A program made the translations under genes and the position numbers. From an uncultured Anaerolinea sp. (lineage in GTDB: Bacteria; Chloroflexota; Anaerolineae; Anaerolineales; Anaerolineaceae), in contig CAZAAJ010000002.1 of the NCBI GenBank assembly GCA_964483135.1, positions 6,511 through 70,510 on the forward strand: a stretch of DNA of 64,000 nt, given 5' to 3'. A model generated the notes under the pieces. That model saw only the letters and a list, made by a program, of their open reading frames with translations. It did no database searches and was not told the origin of the DNA. This document shows positions 24,155-58,610 of the stretch, one piece after another (the stretch's first letter is position 1; each line of letters starts with the position of its first letter).

Positions 24155-24940
24155 TTATGTAAACATGCGTTTACGTTTCGAATTGATCAACGGAGAAACA
24201 ATTTTCCGCAGGTAATATTTGAATACGATTGGCGCAAACCAGCTGCCGCCATCGCGGTAATGCACCCGCAGCATTTCCGGCCAGCAGCGGTCATCGGCAC
24301 TTACTGTTTTTGCGCCGGAATGCAGGCGGAATTTTGCCCACGGAGTACCAGGCAGATACTTCAACTGTGTAACCTTTGCCAGCCGCACCCACAGGTCGTA
24401 ATCCATGGCGAAGAAAAAACTCGGATCCAATGGACCTGTTTTGCGCCAGTGTTCAGCCCGGAAGAAAGCTGCCGGCTGCGGAATGTGAACAAACCCGCGG
24501 CGCAGCCGGGCAAGATCGGTTTGCGCTGCGTTGAACCTGCCGATAACCTTATCATTCTCGTCAATGAAATCCAGATCGCCGTAAACCATGCCAATTTCTG
24601 GATGTTCCTGAAGGTATGCAACTGCAGCTGAAACAGCACCCGGGGTATAGGCGTCGTCAGAATTCACCCACGCGAGGATTTCACCATGCGCCTTTGAAAA
24701 CCCTTTGTTCAAGGCATCGGTTTGGCCTTTATCTCGTTCTGAAATCCAATAGGCAAGTCTGTCAGTATACTTTTCGATCACAGCAACGCTGTTATCCGAT
24801 GAACCGCCATCGATCACAATGTACTCGATACGTGGATAGTCCTGCTCAAGGACTGAGCGCATCGTCTGTTCCAGGAATCGTCCTTGGTTGAAAGACGGGG
24901 TGACGATAGAAACCAGCGGTTTTTTACCAATGGCAGACAT
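24155..24940 (-). CDS. Glycosyltransferase family 2
   Basis: 261 aa. The N-terminal GT-A signature is VSIVTPSFNQGRFLEQTMRSVLEQDYPRIEYIVIDGGSSD ... NSDD. It is a paralogue of 26474..27445. Confidence 0.88.
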   Translation of the reverse strand: MSAIGKKPLVSIVTPSFNQGRFLEQTMRSVLEQDYPRIEYIVIDGGSSDNSVAVIEKYTDRLAYWISERDKGQTDALNKGFSKAHGEILAWVNSDDAYTPGAVSAAVAYLQEHPEIGMVYGDLDFIDENDKVIGRFNAAQTDLARLRRGFVHIPQPAAFFRAEHWRKTGPLDPSFFFAMDYDLWVRLAKVTQLKYLPGTPWAKFRLHSGAKTVSADDRCWPEMLRVHYRDGGSWFAPIVFKYYLRKIVSPLINSKRKRMFT

Positions 24941-26490
24941 TATTTGATTGTTCCTAACGGGTGGCGCAGGTCGAACAGGTAATATCCATCTCCCTGTTCA
25001 TAAGGGTAATTGGCGAAAAGATAGTTATGCAGCTCAGTTTGTGCTTCAAAATCCCCGATGAGGGTCACCAAAAAGTAATCCATCCCATCAGTACTGGATC
25101 TAAAATACTCCACAAATTCCGGGGATGATACCCCACCGAGCTCACGCACCACCATATCTCCGCGAGTTGGCCAGTCCTTTGGCAGGACGAACCCCCAGTA
25201 CTGCAAACGGTAGCCGTAATCATGGGTTAAACCGATCACCTGCTTGTTTAAGCCAATTTTCTCTCCCAACGTCTTCCAGTAAGCGGCTTCATGACGGTAA
25301 CTGGCAAGTTGAAGATTGTTACGAGTCACCAGGGCTGCAAGCACCATTCCTGCGAAAAGGATGAGTACAACAAGAACGCGAAATAGTTTCGAAAGCTCAA
25401 GCGATTCCAGTTTCTGGAATATCACGTCAGCAATAATCCCAAAACCGATGGCAACAATGAAAACCAGCGGCAGGCTGTAATAGTTATGGGTATAAATATG
25501 ATAAGCAAAGGTAAACCCAAAAATTATGTAACCTATCCATAATAAAAGGTAGATAATTCGGAAATCCTTTTGCCTGATGAGAAAAAAAGCCAGAATTGCC
25601 AGGAAAAGCGGGAAATATCCAACAATCGATTTGGCCATGGTGAACCAGTGGTGATACCAGCTGGGATCCATATACAATGCAGGAAAAAAGCGCGAGCCGA
25701 AGATCGAGCCTTCATTACCACCAACGGTAGCACTAATCACGTTGAAAAGGATTGCTGGAACCAGGGCAAGGACCGCCATCAGGTAGACGTGCCAATCCCT
25801 GATCCAATTCTTGAATCCTTTCATTAACACCATGCATGCAAGTGGCAATCCGACAAAAAACACCGAAGGAGCTTTAACAAAAACTGCCAGCCCTGTGAGG
25901 AGCCCCGCCAGGATTGAATTTTTTAAAGTGCTGTCCTTGAACCATTTATATTGAAAATATATAGCCCACAGTATGCACGAAATCATTAATGGGTCAGGTT
26001 GAAAAGACCGGCTGGCATAAACACCAAACGGAACAAACAGGTAGAAAGCCAGCGCTGCCAAGGCACCATTGACAGAGATCAATCTCCTGGTGAGCAGGAA
26101 TAGCGGGATTCCTCCGATCACCCAAAACAGGATGGAGAAGAATCGTCCGGCATTTGGCCATTCCCTGCCCAGCAAAGCATAGGTATATGCAGCAAGGTGT
26201 TCCATGATCGGTGGTTCAATTGCAGACTGGCCTTCACCGGCAGTAATGCCTATTCGCCTGATATCCGGATCCAGGGTATTCATTTGAGGGATATCCATCT
26301 TGTAATAAATACCCCTCGCCATCAGCAGGGAATGAAGTTGCCGTGTTGCAGCAAAATCCAATTGCAAATCGGAAAAATCAAAAAAACGAACAGCGAAACC
26401 ACCCAGCAATAAAATAGTGACCAGGATCCACTGGATGATCTTATTGGGTCTAAGGAAGAGCGCTGTATGGCTGTTATCTGTCTGCATCAT
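24940..26490 (-). CDS. Polytopic GT-C-type glycosyltransferase (GT39/GT83, ArnT/PMT-like)
   Basis: 516 aa, about 12 TM segments followed by a soluble C-terminal domain of about 110 aa. Acidic residues lie in the first extracytoplasmic loop (DFSDLQLD). Overlaps both neighbours. Confidence 0.6.
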   Translation of the reverse strand: MMQTDNSHTALFLRPNKIIQWILVTILLLGGFAVRFFDFSDLQLDFAATRQLHSLLMARGIYYKMDIPQMNTLDPDIRRIGITAGEGQSAIEPPIMEHLAAYTYALLGREWPNAGRFFSILFWVIGGIPLFLLTRRLISVNGALAALAFYLFVPFGVYASRSFQPDPLMISCILWAIYFQYKWFKDSTLKNSILAGLLTGLAVFVKAPSVFFVGLPLACMVLMKGFKNWIRDWHVYLMAVLALVPAILFNVISATVGGNEGSIFGSRFFPALYMDPSWYHHWFTMAKSIVGYFPLFLAILAFFLIRQKDFRIIYLLLWIGYIIFGFTFAYHIYTHNYYSLPLVFIVAIGFGIIADVIFQKLESLELSKLFRVLVVLILFAGMVLAALVTRNNLQLASYRHEAAYWKTLGEKIGLNKQVIGLTHDYGYRLQYWGFVLPKDWPTRGDMVVRELGGVSSPEFVEYFRSSTDGMDYFLVTLIGDFEAQTELHNYLFANYPYEQGDGYYLFDLRHPLGTIK

Positions 26491-27445
26491 TACAGTCCTC
26501 GGATGTGTGTGGGTTTTGTCGTTTTACCCGCCTGCGGATAAACCATGACCTAAAGTTTTCCAACCCCAAGGGAGCAAAGAAAGCGAAAACCATACGGTAC
26601 CATTCTCTGCCCAAACCACGGGGATTGAGGCAAAAGCTCTTCCAATAGGTTTTAAATGACCCGCGGTAATCCTTCGCATCCAAAAGGTAAAAACCATTCA
26701 GGCGGTTTGCCCCGGCGATGATATCTTTACGATGCCGGTAAAATTCTCCAGATAAATTCGGCTGGGCCGGCATCCATTCCACTATGCGCAATGCCTCTTG
26801 TCCAAATGCTGCGGCCTGCTTCAAGTTTTTGCAATCTTCGTGGTAGTGCGCGCAAGCCCAAAGCCGGGGAATGTACTGCACCTCCCCGACCGCTGCCAGG
26901 CGGATCCACAGGTGATGGTCAAGGAGGAAGTGATAGCTGGTATCCAGGAATCCTGTTTTTTCAAGAGCAGTACGCCGCATGAAAACCGCTGGCTGCCCGA
27001 TGATGTGGAAAGACATCAGGTCGGAAAGCTGCCAATTCCTATAGGTCAACGTGTTCAGGACCTTGCCATCCAGGGTGACCACCCGGACATTACCGTAAAC
27101 GAAACTAGCCTGAGGATGCTCCTGCAGGGCTTTTACCGCGGATGCCACTGTACCGGGCAAGAGGTAATCGTCTGAATTCAACCAGGCAATAAACTCGCCT
27201 TTGGAACGCACCAGCCCCTTGTTGATCGCCTCGGCTTGCCCGGAATCCTTTTCCGAAACCCACCAGGTTAACCGGGCAGCATACTTGTTGATGATATCAA
27301 CACTGCCGTCTTTTGACCCGCCATCTACCACCATGTAATCAATGGCAGGGTAATCCTGATCAAGCACAGAGCGTATTGTCTTTTCCAGGAAGGCAGCCTG
27401 GTTAAAAGAGGGGGTGATAATACTGACCAAAGGGGTTGAAGACAT
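26474..27445 (-). CDS. Glycosyltransferase family 2
   Basis: 323 aa, with VSIITPSFNQAAFLEKTIRSVLDQDYPAIDYMVVDGGSKD ... NSDD. Same architecture as 24155..24940, plus a C-terminal extension. Confidence 0.88.
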   Translation of the reverse strand: MSSTPLVSIITPSFNQAAFLEKTIRSVLDQDYPAIDYMVVDGGSKDGSVDIINKYAARLTWWVSEKDSGQAEAINKGLVRSKGEFIAWLNSDDYLLPGTVASAVKALQEHPQASFVYGNVRVVTLDGKVLNTLTYRNWQLSDLMSFHIIGQPAVFMRRTALEKTGFLDTSYHFLLDHHLWIRLAAVGEVQYIPRLWACAHYHEDCKNLKQAAAFGQEALRIVEWMPAQPNLSGEFYRHRKDIIAGANRLNGFYLLDAKDYRGSFKTYWKSFCLNPRGLGREWYRMVFAFFAPLGLENFRSWFIRRRVKRQNPHTSEDCNDADR

Positions 27446-58078: not shown

Positions 58079-58557
58079 GATTCGTGGTGATCCTCCATTT
58101 CGAAAAATACTTTAAGCCCCGCAATGCGTATCACGGGCAGCGTGGAATCAGATAATACCTGGATATTGTGCTCCAGGCAGGTGAGCCGGCATACTTCCGC
58201 CACATCCCCGTTGCCTTCAATGCATACCGCGTGAACGTTGGCAGCTTTAACCTCATCAAGCGCTTTGCTAACCCGTTCGCGTACCAGGCGGTAAAGATTG
58301 AATTGATTTTGAATGTAATCGAACGTCAAGCGCGCCCGAAGAGCAATGCCCTCAGGTGTGATGATATATTTTAATTTTTTCCGTTCCGCGCGGCTGACTT
58401 TGACGTACCCTTTTTCGATCAAGCGTTTGATATGCCAGTTGATGGTTCCAACCGCCACTTCAAGCTGCGAGGCCATGTCGGCCTGGGTAATATCGGGGTC
58501 TTGCTCTATATGCTCAAGGATGACCAGATCGCGTTCAGTACTGGTTTCAAGGCTCAT
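58075..58557 (-). CDS. Winged-helix (MarR-like, EPS-associated type) transcriptional regulator with extra C-terminal domain
   Basis: Start chosen at the ATG at 58557 ([54 protein letters not shown]). The longer track ORF (to 58668) would include a terminator and a consensus promoter. ATGA overlap with the fcl start. Confidence 0.7.
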
Positions 58558-58568
58558 GCGTCTCCAAT

Positions 58569-58610
58569 ATTCAACTGTTGAATTATAAACTAACCCTGTT
58601 TTGTGGTCAA
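58569..58610 (-). promoter_or_regulatory. Consensus promoter plus 15-bp palindromic operator upstream of the regulator/fcl/wzm operon
   Basis: Minus strand TTGACC (58610-58605), 17 nt, then TATAAT (58587-58582). The perfect palindrome ATTCAAC-N-GTTGAAT (58569-58583) overlaps the -10 element and the start-site region. GGAG lies 4 nt before the ATG. Confidence 0.6.

Follow-up and report, generated by a model that had tools for sequence, protein, structure and literature searches.

A lineage-wide surface-glycan locus of Anaerolineales with two predicted ulosonic-acid modules and a foreign third in an uncultured Anaerolinea

The stretch of DNA analysed here, referred to throughout as the window, comprises 64,000 nucleotides (nt) from an uncultured Anaerolinea sp., of which about 34 kb (24155–58668) form a surface-glycan locus whose genes are all intact according to the open reading frame (ORF) listing and to Pfam and NCBIfam scans. 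The locus contains three synthases of the NeuB family, associated with the production of nine-carbon nonulosonic acids (NulOs). An earlier reading of the letters alone, which we call the sequence-only reading, had listed these three synthases together with four CTP_transf_3 cytidylyltransferases (CTs), one NeuC, one PseB and a Wzm/Wzt transporter pair. Profile searches bore all of them out, NeuC and PseB each scoring above an NCBIfam equivalog cut-off (Table 1). That reading had also counted at least nine glycosyltransferase (GT)-like ORFs; such genes are present, and our count is 11, comprising four GT2 proteins, one GT4, one PMT_2/GT-C protein, one MptE/Maf-like protein, two Capsule_synth-like proteins, one Glyphos_transf-like protein and a 306-amino-acid (aa) ORF with a GT-A fold. 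We designate the synthases NeuB_A, NeuB_B and NeuB_C, and their gene neighbourhoods modules A, B and C.

Table 1 Genes of the surface-glycan locus in window coordinates
Feature	Position	Strand	Evidence
GT2a glycosyltransferase, last gene of the locus	24155–24940	-	PF00535 99 bits
GT-C (PMT_2) polytopic glycosyltransferase	24940–26490	-	PF13231 65 bits; ~10 predicted transmembrane segments
GT2b glycosyltransferase	26474–27445	-	PF00535
MptE/Maf-like (DUF115), candidate fourth CMP-sugar transferase	27445–28248	-	PF01973 47.6 bits (cut-off 34.6)
SDR oxidoreductase SDR1	28251–29114	-	adh_short_C2 169 bits
D-isomer 2-hydroxyacid dehydrogenase	29023–30030	-	PF02826 194 bits; below every NCBIfam equivalog cut-off
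698-aa polytopic membrane protein	30065–32161	-	~12–14 predicted transmembrane segments (crude hydropathy scan)
CT_A2, fourth cytidylyltransferase, without a synthase of its own	32148–32825	-	PF02348 89 bits
GT2c glycosyltransferase	33173–34129	-	PF00535
Caps_A, KpsC/KpsS-like GT-B, HP motif RAHPDE, candidate transferase for the module A acid	34126–35742	-	PF05159 39.8 bits (cut-off 20; part of the model covered)
NeuB_A, SAF-less NeuB-family synthase, 289 aa	35747–36616	-	PF03102 257 bits, E = 1.8e-76
CT_A1-HAD, NeuA-type cytidylyltransferase with C-terminal KdsC/YrbI-type phosphatase	36663–37898	-	Pfam, NCBIfam
SDR oxidoreductase SDR2	37883–38704	-	adh_short_C2 156 bits
GFO, Gfo/Idh/MocA oxidoreductase, first gene of the module A operon	38713–39699	-	Pfam
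NeuC, hydrolysing UDP-GlcNAc 2-epimerase	40151–41290	+	TIGR03568 415 bits (cut-off 236); GC 0.384
CT_B, cytidylyltransferase with N-terminal CBS	41301–42410 (ORF from 41199)	+	CTP_transf_3 and CBS; PseF 163 bits, below 206; GC 0.389
NeuB_B, NeuB and SAF, 342 aa	42398–43426	+	TIGR03569 325 bits, below 400; KIGSGE motif; GC 0.387
TagF/Glyphos_transf-like GT-B, HP motif RLHPNH	43517–44944	-	PF04464 26.6 bits; weak NF046086; GC 0.387
GT2 of the low-GC island	44972–46069	-	PF00535; GC 0.352
306-aa GT-A-fold glycosyltransferase, no Pfam family	45987–46907	-	AF2 model, pLDDT 88.7
CT_C, SpsF/KdsB-like cytidylyltransferase	46904–47731	-	PF02348 118 bits
GT4 glycosyltransferase (GT-B fold)	47659–48756	-	PF00534 105 bits
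NeuB_C, NeuB and SAF, 356 aa	48769–49839	-	PF03102 250 bits; distinct cross-phylum clade
RmlD-like reductase, putative C4-ketoreductase on the PseB product	49857–50774	-	PF04321 199 bits; TIGR01214 188 bits, below cut-off 224
PseB, UDP-GlcNAc 4,6-dehydratase (inverting)	50774–51778	-	TIGR03589 499.4 bits (cut-off 407.75)
499-aa protein, weak Asn_synthase/PP-loop match	51813–53312	-	Asn_synthase 24 bits; TIGR01536 28.6 bits
Caps_C, KpsC/KpsS-like GT-B, HP motif RIHPGE, candidate transferase for the module C acid	53348–55060	-	PF05159 21.6 bits (cut-off 20; part of the model covered)
Wzt ATPase, weak C-terminal Wzt_C-like domain	54997–56259	-	ABC_tran 77 bits; Wzt_C 26.9, below cut-off 30.4
Wzm, ABC-2 permease	56267–57121	-	PF01061 70 bits
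Fcl-like SDR epimerase/reductase	57122–58078	-	Epimerase 196 bits; NF047922 308 bits, below cut-off 500
MarR/winged-helix protein, first gene of the long minus-strand operon	58075–58668	-	Pfam HTH_24/MarR

Two long minus-strand operons flank a plus-strand neuC–CT–neuB cassette. Their junctions had been described as tight, which holds for most of them; the exceptions are a 347-nt gap at 32825/33173 inside the left operon, a divergent gap of 451 nt at 39699/40151 and a convergent one of 90 nt at 43426/43517. Among the main ORFs of the whole 64-kb window, the Pfam scan returned no match to phosphoglycosyltransferase, Wzx/Wzy, flagellin or SLH families, the first three of which the sequence-only reading had also failed to see. 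A promoter and terminator scan of 32–47 kb gave counts equal to those of shuffled sequence and was uninformative.

All three synthases match PF03102 over its full length (profile positions 1–241 or 4–240 of 241; E = 1.8e-76, 7e-76 and 3.7e-74), and alignment with 1xuu places the metal-binding histidine pair equivalent to H215 and H236 of Neisseria meningitidis in each of them (GYSGH/ERH, GHSDH/EKH and GLSDH/EKH). NeuB_B and NeuB_C have the SAF domain, which supplies Arg314, with its RP motif; NeuB_A has no SAF domain, a loss that does not exclude it from the NeuB family because about 30% of NulO synthases lack one (PMC8208679). The three are 31–33% identical to one another and form three separate lineages in a neighbour-joining tree, and are therefore not recent duplicates of a single enzyme; the four cytidylyltransferases share 25–36% identity. 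Each synthase is accompanied by its own cytidylyltransferase and by a neighbouring candidate CMP-sugar transferase. None reaches the cut-off of the N-acetylneuraminate (Neu5Ac) synthase model TIGR03569 (399.65), with scores of 247.8 for NeuB_A, 325.4 for NeuB_B and 282.2 for NeuB_C. NeuB_C scores 268.5 against a cut-off of 340.25 for PseI and has Gly rather than the Phe typical of pseudaminic acid (Pse) synthases in the KIxSxE motif. With no synthase at the Neu5Ac or Pse cut-off, none can be assigned a standard sialic (Neu), legionaminic (Leg) or Pse identity.

Classing the synthases by diagnostic residues, namely Gly or Phe in KIxSxE and the residue at N. meningitidis position 184 (PMC7371886), was tried and rejected. 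The equivalents of positions 133 and 184 give mixed signals in the window: NeuB_B and NeuB_C combine the Neu/Leg-type Gly with a Pse-like Ser/Thr at 184, and NeuB_A has neither. For a legionaminic set of LegB, LegC and LegH type, the locus holds no aminotransferase or acetyltransferase; only the NeuC/LegG-like, NeuB and cytidylyltransferase genes would correspond.

Synteny was surveyed in the best 80 of more than 443 NeuB_C relatives found in a genome-collection scan (66–94% identity, almost all from Anaerolineae or other Chloroflexota), using tblastn of all window proteins. In nearly all of these 80 Anaerolineae loci, synteny extends over modules A and C, Wzm/Wzt and the majority of the transferases, in the near-invariant order MarR, Fcl, Wzm, Wzt, Caps_C, a variable gene, PseB, RmlD-like, NeuB_C, GT4, CT_C, GT-A, GT2, Glyphos-like, a variable slot, GFO, SDR, CT-HAD, NeuB_A and Caps_A. 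A metagenome scan anchored on CT_A2 extended this through the rest of the A side: in 27 long loci the order continues with GT2c, CT_A2, the 698-aa protein (in some), the 2-hydroxyacid dehydrogenase, SDR, MptE-like, GT2, PMT_2 and GT2. In relatives the syntenic block ends after GT2a, at the same class I/II aminotransferase that flanks the locus here. Modules A and C are also present in two cultured strains, Leptolinea tardivitalis YMTK-2 and Pelolinea submarina MO-CFX1, neither of which shows a NeuB/NeuC cassette in the part of the locus inspected. Judged by synteny, this is an order-wide core locus whose usual state comprises two NeuB modules, A and C. A literature search for work linking Anaerolineae or Chloroflexi with nonulosonic acids found nothing relevant.

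This breadth bears directly on the account given by the sequence-only reading, in which the locus is an exceptional, self-contained possession of one organism that incorporates three distinct NulOs into a single polymer or glycoprotein of its surface. The divergence of the three synthases and the presence of a separate cytidylyltransferase for each do speak for three distinct pathways, and the single Wzm/Wzt pair and the tight operon junctions are in keeping with a common product. However, the locus occurs across the order and normally has two NeuBs, the third pathway here is a foreign cassette in a variable slot, and none of the synthases can be assigned a standard Neu, Leg or Pse identity. 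Nor does sequence tie all of the acids to one polymer, since the GT-C and GT2 enzymes could serve a separate modification. The remark that such a density of NulO genes would be unusual in a non-pathogen also carries little weight: environmental bacteria account for most NeuB sequences (PMC8208679), three or more NulO signals were recorded in half of the surveyed non-pathogens (PMC8157484), and several synthases per genome or cluster are already documented elsewhere (PMC3438082, PMC7371886). We consider this account unlikely and return to the order-wide locus with its two core modules.

In module C, the genes for PseB and an RmlD-like reductase overlap by 1 nt and NeuB_C follows 17 nt further on. 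NeuB_C is equidistant from PseI, SpsE and NeuB in the Protein Data Bank (PDB) and belongs to a clade with the signature motifs KIGSGD, QCNTNYT and EKHFTDD. The best PDB match of CT_C is 6oew (153 bits), which we take to be a Leptospira protein, the search output itself showing no organism. The PseF model (cut-off 205.7) does not match CT_C, and its best score in the locus is 163.5 for CT_B. No gene between 24155 and 58668 gives a match of the DegT, GNAT or Glyco_tran_28_C type that PseC, PseH and PseG would be expected to show; the one DegT match of the window is weak and secondary, and falls on the class I/II aminotransferase beside the locus (22928–24112). Genes of these three types were likewise lacking among the ORFs examined in the Leptolinea and Pelolinea loci, in both of which the gene before PseB encodes a 288-aa methyltransferase. 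The GT4 gene of module C keeps its position across relatives at 36–68% identity.

Homologues of NeuB_C beyond Anaerolineae, reached through representatives of clusters at 50% identity, show that the clade includes many Bacillales, Lachnospiraceae, a Neisseriaceae metagenome-assembled genome (MAG) and methanogens; its proteins are named in the sources only 'N-acetylneuraminate synthase family protein'. A set of PseB-like, RmlD-like, NeuB, GNAT and cytidylyltransferase genes was found in six such contexts, from Lysinibacillus, Paenibacillus, Peribacillus, Aneurinibacillus, a Lachnospiraceae MAG and the Neisseriaceae MAG. In all six, the RmlD-like gene stands directly upstream of the NeuB_C-clade gene, adjacent to it or overlapping, and no aminotransferase or PseG/NeuC-type gene lies nearby. 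Between the window and Lysinibacillus, identity is 63% for PseB, 54% for NeuB (57% in the representatives search), 43% for the cytidylyltransferase and 28% for the reductase. Five of the six contexts are flagellin/Maf islands, and these Firmicutes islands appear to encode an uncharacterised flagellin sugar pathway in cultivable bacteria; we found no published chemistry for their glycans. Flagellin and Maf genes were seen in Lysinibacillus (L163), Paenibacillus lutimineralis (L165), the Lachnospiraceae MAG (L167), Peribacillus asahii (L168) and Aneurinibacillus uraniidurans (L169), and a DUF8042 gene in all four Bacillales islands.

The gene set suggests a route in which UDP-GlcNAc would be dehydrated and inverted by PseB, and the RmlD-like enzyme would then reduce the 4-keto group in place of transamination to give a 6-deoxy-L-N-acetylhexosamine (6-deoxy-L-HexNAc, of the 6-deoxy-L-AltNAc type). 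After release from UDP, a step for which the module has no recognisable hydrolase, this sugar would be condensed with phosphoenolpyruvate (PEP) by NeuB_C, and CT_C would activate the product to CMP-5-acetamido-3,5,9-trideoxy-nonulosonic acid. The predicted acid is a 5-acetamido-3,5,9-trideoxy-nonulosonic acid of the fusaminic acid type. Fusaminic acid is the natural 3,5,9-trideoxy NulO of Fusobacterium nucleatum, where it co-occurs with L-6dAltNAc (PMC13014188, PMC7371886), and we found no paper that assigns genes to either sugar. We tentatively propose, as a possibility that we rate below an even chance, that module C represents a hitherto undescribed, aminotransferase-independent route to 7-hydroxy, 9-deoxy NulOs of the fusaminic acid class, which, far from being confined to a single Fusobacterium strain, would serve as a core envelope sugar of a Chloroflexota order and as a flagellin sugar of many Bacillales and Lachnospiraceae, and would supply the missing genes for fusaminic acid.

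The same enzymes could be divided differently. PseB and the RmlD-like reductase might make UDP-6-deoxy-L-HexNAc (of the L-6dAltNAc, L-QuiNAc or L-RhaNAc type) solely as a donor for the GT4, leaving NeuB_C to make an ordinary Neu or 2-keto-3-deoxynononic (Kdn) acid from ManNAc or Man. Pairs of Polysacc_synt_2 and RmlD-like enzymes are the standard route to 2-acetamido-2,6-dideoxy-L-hexoses (WbvB/WbvR, FnlA/FnlB), the GT4 gene comes after NeuB_C, and a UDP-sugar hydrolase is lacking from module C. In F. nucleatum, moreover, L-6dAltNAc occurs in glycans in its own right (PMC13014188). Against a donor-only role stands the position of the RmlD-like gene directly upstream of a NeuB_C-clade gene in six unrelated taxa, several of whose islands have no GT4-type transferase and offer Maf as the sole obvious glycosylating enzyme. 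In most Anaerolineae loci there is also no ManNAc-forming enzyme beside NeuB_C, which lies below the Neu5Ac synthase cut-off and has a clade and active-site motifs of its own. We hold this division of labour to be improbable, and keep the fusaminic-type route as the working account of module C.

Module A, whose operon of GFO, SDR, CT-HAD, NeuB_A and Caps_A is conserved in relatives, looks phosphate-dependent from the domains that it encodes. The phosphatase domain of CT_A1-HAD has an intact DxD motif (DFDGVLTD), and the protein matches 3mmz, KdsC, BT1713 (3e81), the C-terminal domain of mouse CMAS (3ewi) and 1qwj in the PDB. Its scores of 117.6 for KdsC (cut-off 208), 102.0 for TIGR01670 (cut-off 106.95) and 85.6 for the Kdn-9-phosphate phosphatase (cut-off 180) support membership of KdsC/YrbI at the family level. 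In the PDB, NeuB_A is best matched by 6ncs, a SAF-less chain of 290 aa that was deposited as a sialic acid synthase and is presumably from Leptospira, although the search output does not show the organism. Twenty orthologues of NeuB_A are all SAF-less, 289–313 aa long and marked by the motifs K[IV]PSA[SLA] and GYSGH. In this module, NeuB_A would condense PEP with a phosphorylated sugar, the KdsC-type domain would strip the phosphate and the same fused protein would make the CMP-sugar, as in an animal-, Leptospira- or Bacteroides-like 9-phosphate route with a Kdn- or Neu-like product. In L. interrogans, a NulO synthase is fused to a phosphatase (PMC3438082). Compared by size and annotation with the published description, the GFO, SDR and cytidylyltransferase proteins are similar to the PtmF/PtmA/LegF triad (PMC4481668). 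In P. submarina, the CT-HAD gene is separated from NeuB_A by a radical-SAM/SPASM gene (L071:19319–20380), and a gene for an SBP_bac_5 solute-binding protein lies inside the locus on the opposite strand (L071:13953–15863).

NeuB_A might instead make another 3-deoxy-2-ulosonic acid, for example an eight-carbon acid resembling 3-deoxy-D-manno-octulosonic acid (Kdo) from a pentose phosphate, to be transferred by a KpsC/KpsS-like enzyme, possibly as a chain cap read by Wzt. β-Kdo caps occur on ABC-exported O-antigens, as in Klebsiella O12 and Raoultella WbbB, and several features of the locus point in the same direction: the HAD domain scores higher for KdsC (118 bits) than for the Kdn-9-phosphate phosphatase (86 bits), Caps_A and Caps_C match PF05159 with KpsC as the only PDB match of the Caps_C profile, NeuB_A has neither a SAF domain nor the equivalent of Glu134, and Wzt has a weak Wzt_C-like domain. 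Yet all of these scores lie below family cut-offs, the cytidylyltransferase domain is NeuA/PseF-like and not KdsB-like (142 bits for PseF versus about 39 for KdsB), known Kdo-8-phosphate synthases belong elsewhere by family, and the closest structural relative of NeuB_A was deposited as a sialic acid synthase. We judge a Kdo-like product to be distinctly unlikely, and treat module A as a putative NulO module of the 9-phosphate type.

Module B is a horizontally acquired, foreign cassette in a variable slot. Its NeuC, CT and NeuB genes form a contiguous trio of the Neu5Ac type (40151–43426), with no LegB, LegC or LegH in the window, and the closest PDB relative of NeuB_B is the Neu5Ac synthase of N. 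meningitidis (1xuu, 228 bits); the cassette would most likely make a Neu5Ac-type acid from UDP-GlcNAc through NeuC, CBS-NeuA and NeuB. Five consecutive genes (40151–46069) have a guanine-plus-cytosine (GC) content of 0.35–0.39, as against 0.46–0.55 in every other gene of the locus. Two of the five, the GT2 and the Glyphos-like gene, occupy positions conserved in all relatives, which suggests that the low-GC island arose by allelic replacement and not by simple insertion.

Among the 41 loci with both flanking anchors, the slot varies in length from 1.0 to 7.3 kb, and about 5 of the 80 related loci have a NeuB/NeuC cassette in it. Only one, from an Anaerolinea MAG (L003), carries the orthologous cassette, in the same place and orientation (identity 80–85%, with protein identities also put at 60–85%). 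The other four (L019, L047, L070 and L080) carry a different NeuB, NeuC and CT cassette that is co-directional with the operon and whose NeuB is 32–34% identical to NeuB_B. The slot looks like a hot spot for the exchange of NulO cassettes. In L047 the cassette (L047:15683–20365) includes a GNAT gene and is followed by a 2-hydroxyacid dehydrogenase; that of L080 lies at L080:15227–18186. In four of the five cassette-bearing loci the Glyphos-like transferase is 59–71% identical to that of the window, compared with about 40% elsewhere, a pattern that fits a role in transferring the cassette sugar. That the abrupt drop of about 0.13 in GC over 40151–46069 betrays an assembly or binning chimera foreign to this genome is very improbable, given an independent Logan assembly of SRR13007709 (L162) that runs from native sequence, comprising Wzm through the 306-aa GT, across the junction to the low-GC GT2, the matching cassette of L003 and the conserved positions of the two low-GC transferases.

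Each NulO module adjoins a GT-B transferase with an HP motif that may transfer its acid: Caps_C, Caps_A and, as the candidate for module B, the Glyphos-like protein. All three contain the R-x-H-P motif and match weakly to NF046086, the Tannerella-type BFO_1060 family. Caps_A and Caps_C are 30% identical over 198 aa; in profile searches of the PDB, Caps_C matched KpsC alone (6mgd, E = 0.05) and the Glyphos-like profile matched nothing. hhalign related the Caps_C and Glyphos-like families at 90.8% probability over the Rossmann region with the R-x-H-P motif. CT_A2 is conserved in the metagenome loci together with the 2-hydroxyacid dehydrogenase, SDR and MptE-like genes, and this unit, with its two dehydrogenases, may make and transfer a derivative. 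The MptE-like protein has 267 aa, no Maf N-terminal domain and no flagellin gene in the window, and shows sub-threshold PDB matches to the Cst-I and Cst-II sialyltransferases (E = 0.03–0.5). Four cytidylyltransferases would tentatively be matched by four candidate CMP-sugar transferases. The GT2, GT4 and GT-A enzymes would assemble a glycan on a lipid carrier in the cytoplasm for export by Wzm/Wzt, and the GT-C (PMT_2) protein, with the GT2s on either side of it, would decorate the glycan outside the membrane or attach it there.

The GT-A member of this set is the 306-aa ORF, the Foldseek matches of which (E about 1e-7) include K4CP, SpsA, WrtF and TarP. It has 7162 homologues, and all 120 of those listed are named 'hypothetical protein'. 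Its fold, by model and Foldseek, led us to reject it as the missing PseG-like hydrolase. Of the two GT-C proteins named in the sequence-only reading, the one at 24940–26490 is confirmed by PMT_2; the 698-aa membrane protein has no Pfam or NCBIfam match, occurs in some relatives only and aligns with the PMT_2 family at 20% hhalign probability, so that its status as a second GT-C is unproven. The gene labelled fcl does encode an SDR-family protein, conserved across the order at 67–93% identity, but the protein scores below the Fcl cut-off, and gmd is missing both from the window and from the sequence flanking related loci. Its substrate may, given that score, be another 4-keto-6-deoxy sugar. The MarR/winged-helix gene, which overlaps the fcl-like gene by 4 nt, opens the locus in almost all related genomes and is for that reason a candidate dedicated regulator; the C-terminal half of its product (about 100 aa) has no domain match. 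The 499-aa Asn_synthase-like protein occupies the variable position before PseB and has tblastn matches in about 7 of the 80 related loci. A role as a PseA-type amidotransferase was considered and is unsupported, with no NCBIfam amidotransferase match, no PDB match and no detectable similarity to known acetamidino-forming enzymes in either collection.

Taken as a whole, we read the region, with moderate confidence, as a lineage-wide Anaerolineales locus for the assembly and export of a surface glycan of the Wzm/Wzt type, with two ancestral ulosonic-acid modules, a third acquired horizontally in this genome, and module chemistries along the lines proposed above. Gene content, divergence, synteny and base composition are read directly from the sequences, and the chemistry and the fate of the sugars are deduced from them. 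Several observations weigh against this reading. None of the three NeuBs and none of the four cytidylyltransferases reaches an NCBIfam equivalog cut-off. NeuB_A and its orthologues lack the equivalent of N. meningitidis Glu134 and have GYSGH in place of GLSDH, so that their chemistry may differ from that of a NulO synthase. Module C contains no recognisable UDP-sugar hydrolase, its GT4 carries a strong, ordinary GT4 signature, and the GNAT of the Firmicutes versions is hard to explain without a 7-amino group. The CMP-sugar transferases are assigned on sub-threshold or marginal similarities, and no initiating transferase, ligase or acceptor was identified in the locus, which leaves the idea of one polymer unproven. 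Relative to the literature that we found, what is new is the order-wide conservation in Anaerolineales, the serotype-like NulO slot and the aminotransferase-free module C.

Anaerolineae are among the most abundant filamentous bacteria of anaerobic digesters and sediments, and the chemistry of their envelope is almost unknown. The conservation of a locus with two ulosonic-acid pathways suggests that acidic nine-carbon sugars belong to the basic make-up of their surface. Such acids are relevant to the chemistry of granule and biofilm matrices, in which Pse/Leg-type acids and Kdn are abundant (PMC10483923), and two cultured species carry the locus. If module C does make a trideoxy NulO without an aminotransferase, it would add a fourth biosynthetic branch to those of Neu, Leg and Pse and would account for fusaminic acid. 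The variable slot, in which NulO cassettes seem to be swapped like serotype determinants in non-pathogens, points to pressure from phages or predators and not to host mimicry.

Outside the locus, tRNA-Phe(GAA) (19093–19166, minus strand) lies inside the 5′ part of a long ORF (18189–19205, minus strand) with a C-terminal match to Peptidase_C39_2, so that the gene itself must start downstream of the tRNA. The minus-strand segment 19240–21149 encodes a Ras/Arf-like small GTPase (19776–20318), an unassigned 179-aa ORF and a DUF4388 protein (20334–21149), an arrangement reminiscent of MglA-type polarity modules; DUF4388 also occurs near the end of the locus in one relative (L091). At 1870–11854, genes for the FAD, 2Fe-2S and molybdopterin subunits of an enzyme resembling xanthine dehydrogenase or CO dehydrogenase precede an amidohydrolase gene and Bmp/PnrA-type ABC uptake genes, a cluster that probably serves purine or nucleoside catabolism. 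At 12026–15557, a carboxyltransferase, a biotin carrier and an OAD_beta subunit stand together in what looks like a Na+-translocating decarboxylase of the methylmalonyl-CoA or oxaloacetate type, consistent with an anaerobic fermenter.

Among known systems, the Leptospira interrogans cluster offers several parallels. It, too, encodes more than one NulO synthase and more than one CMP-synthetase, two of each (Ricaldi et al. 2012, PMC3438082), and the coupling of one synthase to a phosphatase implies an animal-like 9-phosphate route there as well; a glycosyltransferase of Leptospira borgpetersenii (6p61) is also among the Foldseek matches of the 306-aa GT. However, the Leg pathway of Leptospira is complete, and its aminotransferases and N-acetyltransferase have no counterpart here; its phosphatase is fused to the synthase and not to the cytidylyltransferase; identities are about 33%; and the Anaerolineae locus additionally holds Wzm/Wzt, a GT-C protein and many transferases. 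In Campylobacter jejuni, NeuB paralogues are found in the lipooligosaccharide and flagellar loci. That genome has three of them, differing in specificity (PMC7371886), NeuB1, NeuB2 (LegI) and NeuB3 (PseI), and NeuB_B shares the Neu/Leg-type KIGSGE motif; C. jejuni has full Leg and Pse pathways, whereas two of the three synthases here fit none of the three classes.

Module A can be set beside the Kdn and Neu5Ac 9-phosphate routes of Bacteroides thetaiotaomicron, with BT1713, and of vertebrates (NANS/NANP/CMAS), which likewise use a YrbI/KdsC-type HAD phosphatase for a ulosonate phosphate. Mouse CMAS also joins an N-terminal cytidylyltransferase to a C-terminal KdsC-like domain, and its two parts, solved separately as 1qwj and 3ewi, both match. 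The window phosphatase nevertheless scores 86 against the Kdn-9-phosphate cut-off of 180, and NeuB_A differs in lacking SAF and in its altered active-site residues. ABC-dependent glycans with terminal caps, such as those of Klebsiella O12 and Raoultella WbbB and the S-layer glycan of Geobacillus stearothermophilus, share with this locus Wzm/Wzt, a possible Wzt_C domain, a KpsC/KpsS-like transferase directly beside Wzt and a methyltransferase in the same place in relatives. They differ in that Wzt_C is below its cut-off here and no ligase or oligosaccharyltransferase was identified in the window. To our knowledge, Chloroflexota are generally held to lack lipopolysaccharide, and a lipid A-core acceptor is therefore unlikely.

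Module C resembles the Pse pathway (PseB, C, H, G, I and F) in its first enzyme, in a NeuB-family condensation with PEP and in CMP activation, and departs from it in having an RmlD-like reductase in place of PseC, PseH and PseG, which are absent from the window. Its predicted product corresponds, by chemical logic only, to the fusaminic acid of F. nucleatum, the only reported natural trideoxy (7-hydroxy) NulO, which co-occurs with the very hexosamine expected from PseB and a 4-reductase. The Firmicutes islands have flagellin, a Maf protein of 447–664 aa and GNAT, unlike the Wzm/Wzt locus described here, in which flagellin is missing and a GT4 replaces GNAT; the flagellin islands of Bacillales and Lachnospiraceae nonetheless contain the same four-gene set as module C, with 43–63% identity for three of the four proteins.

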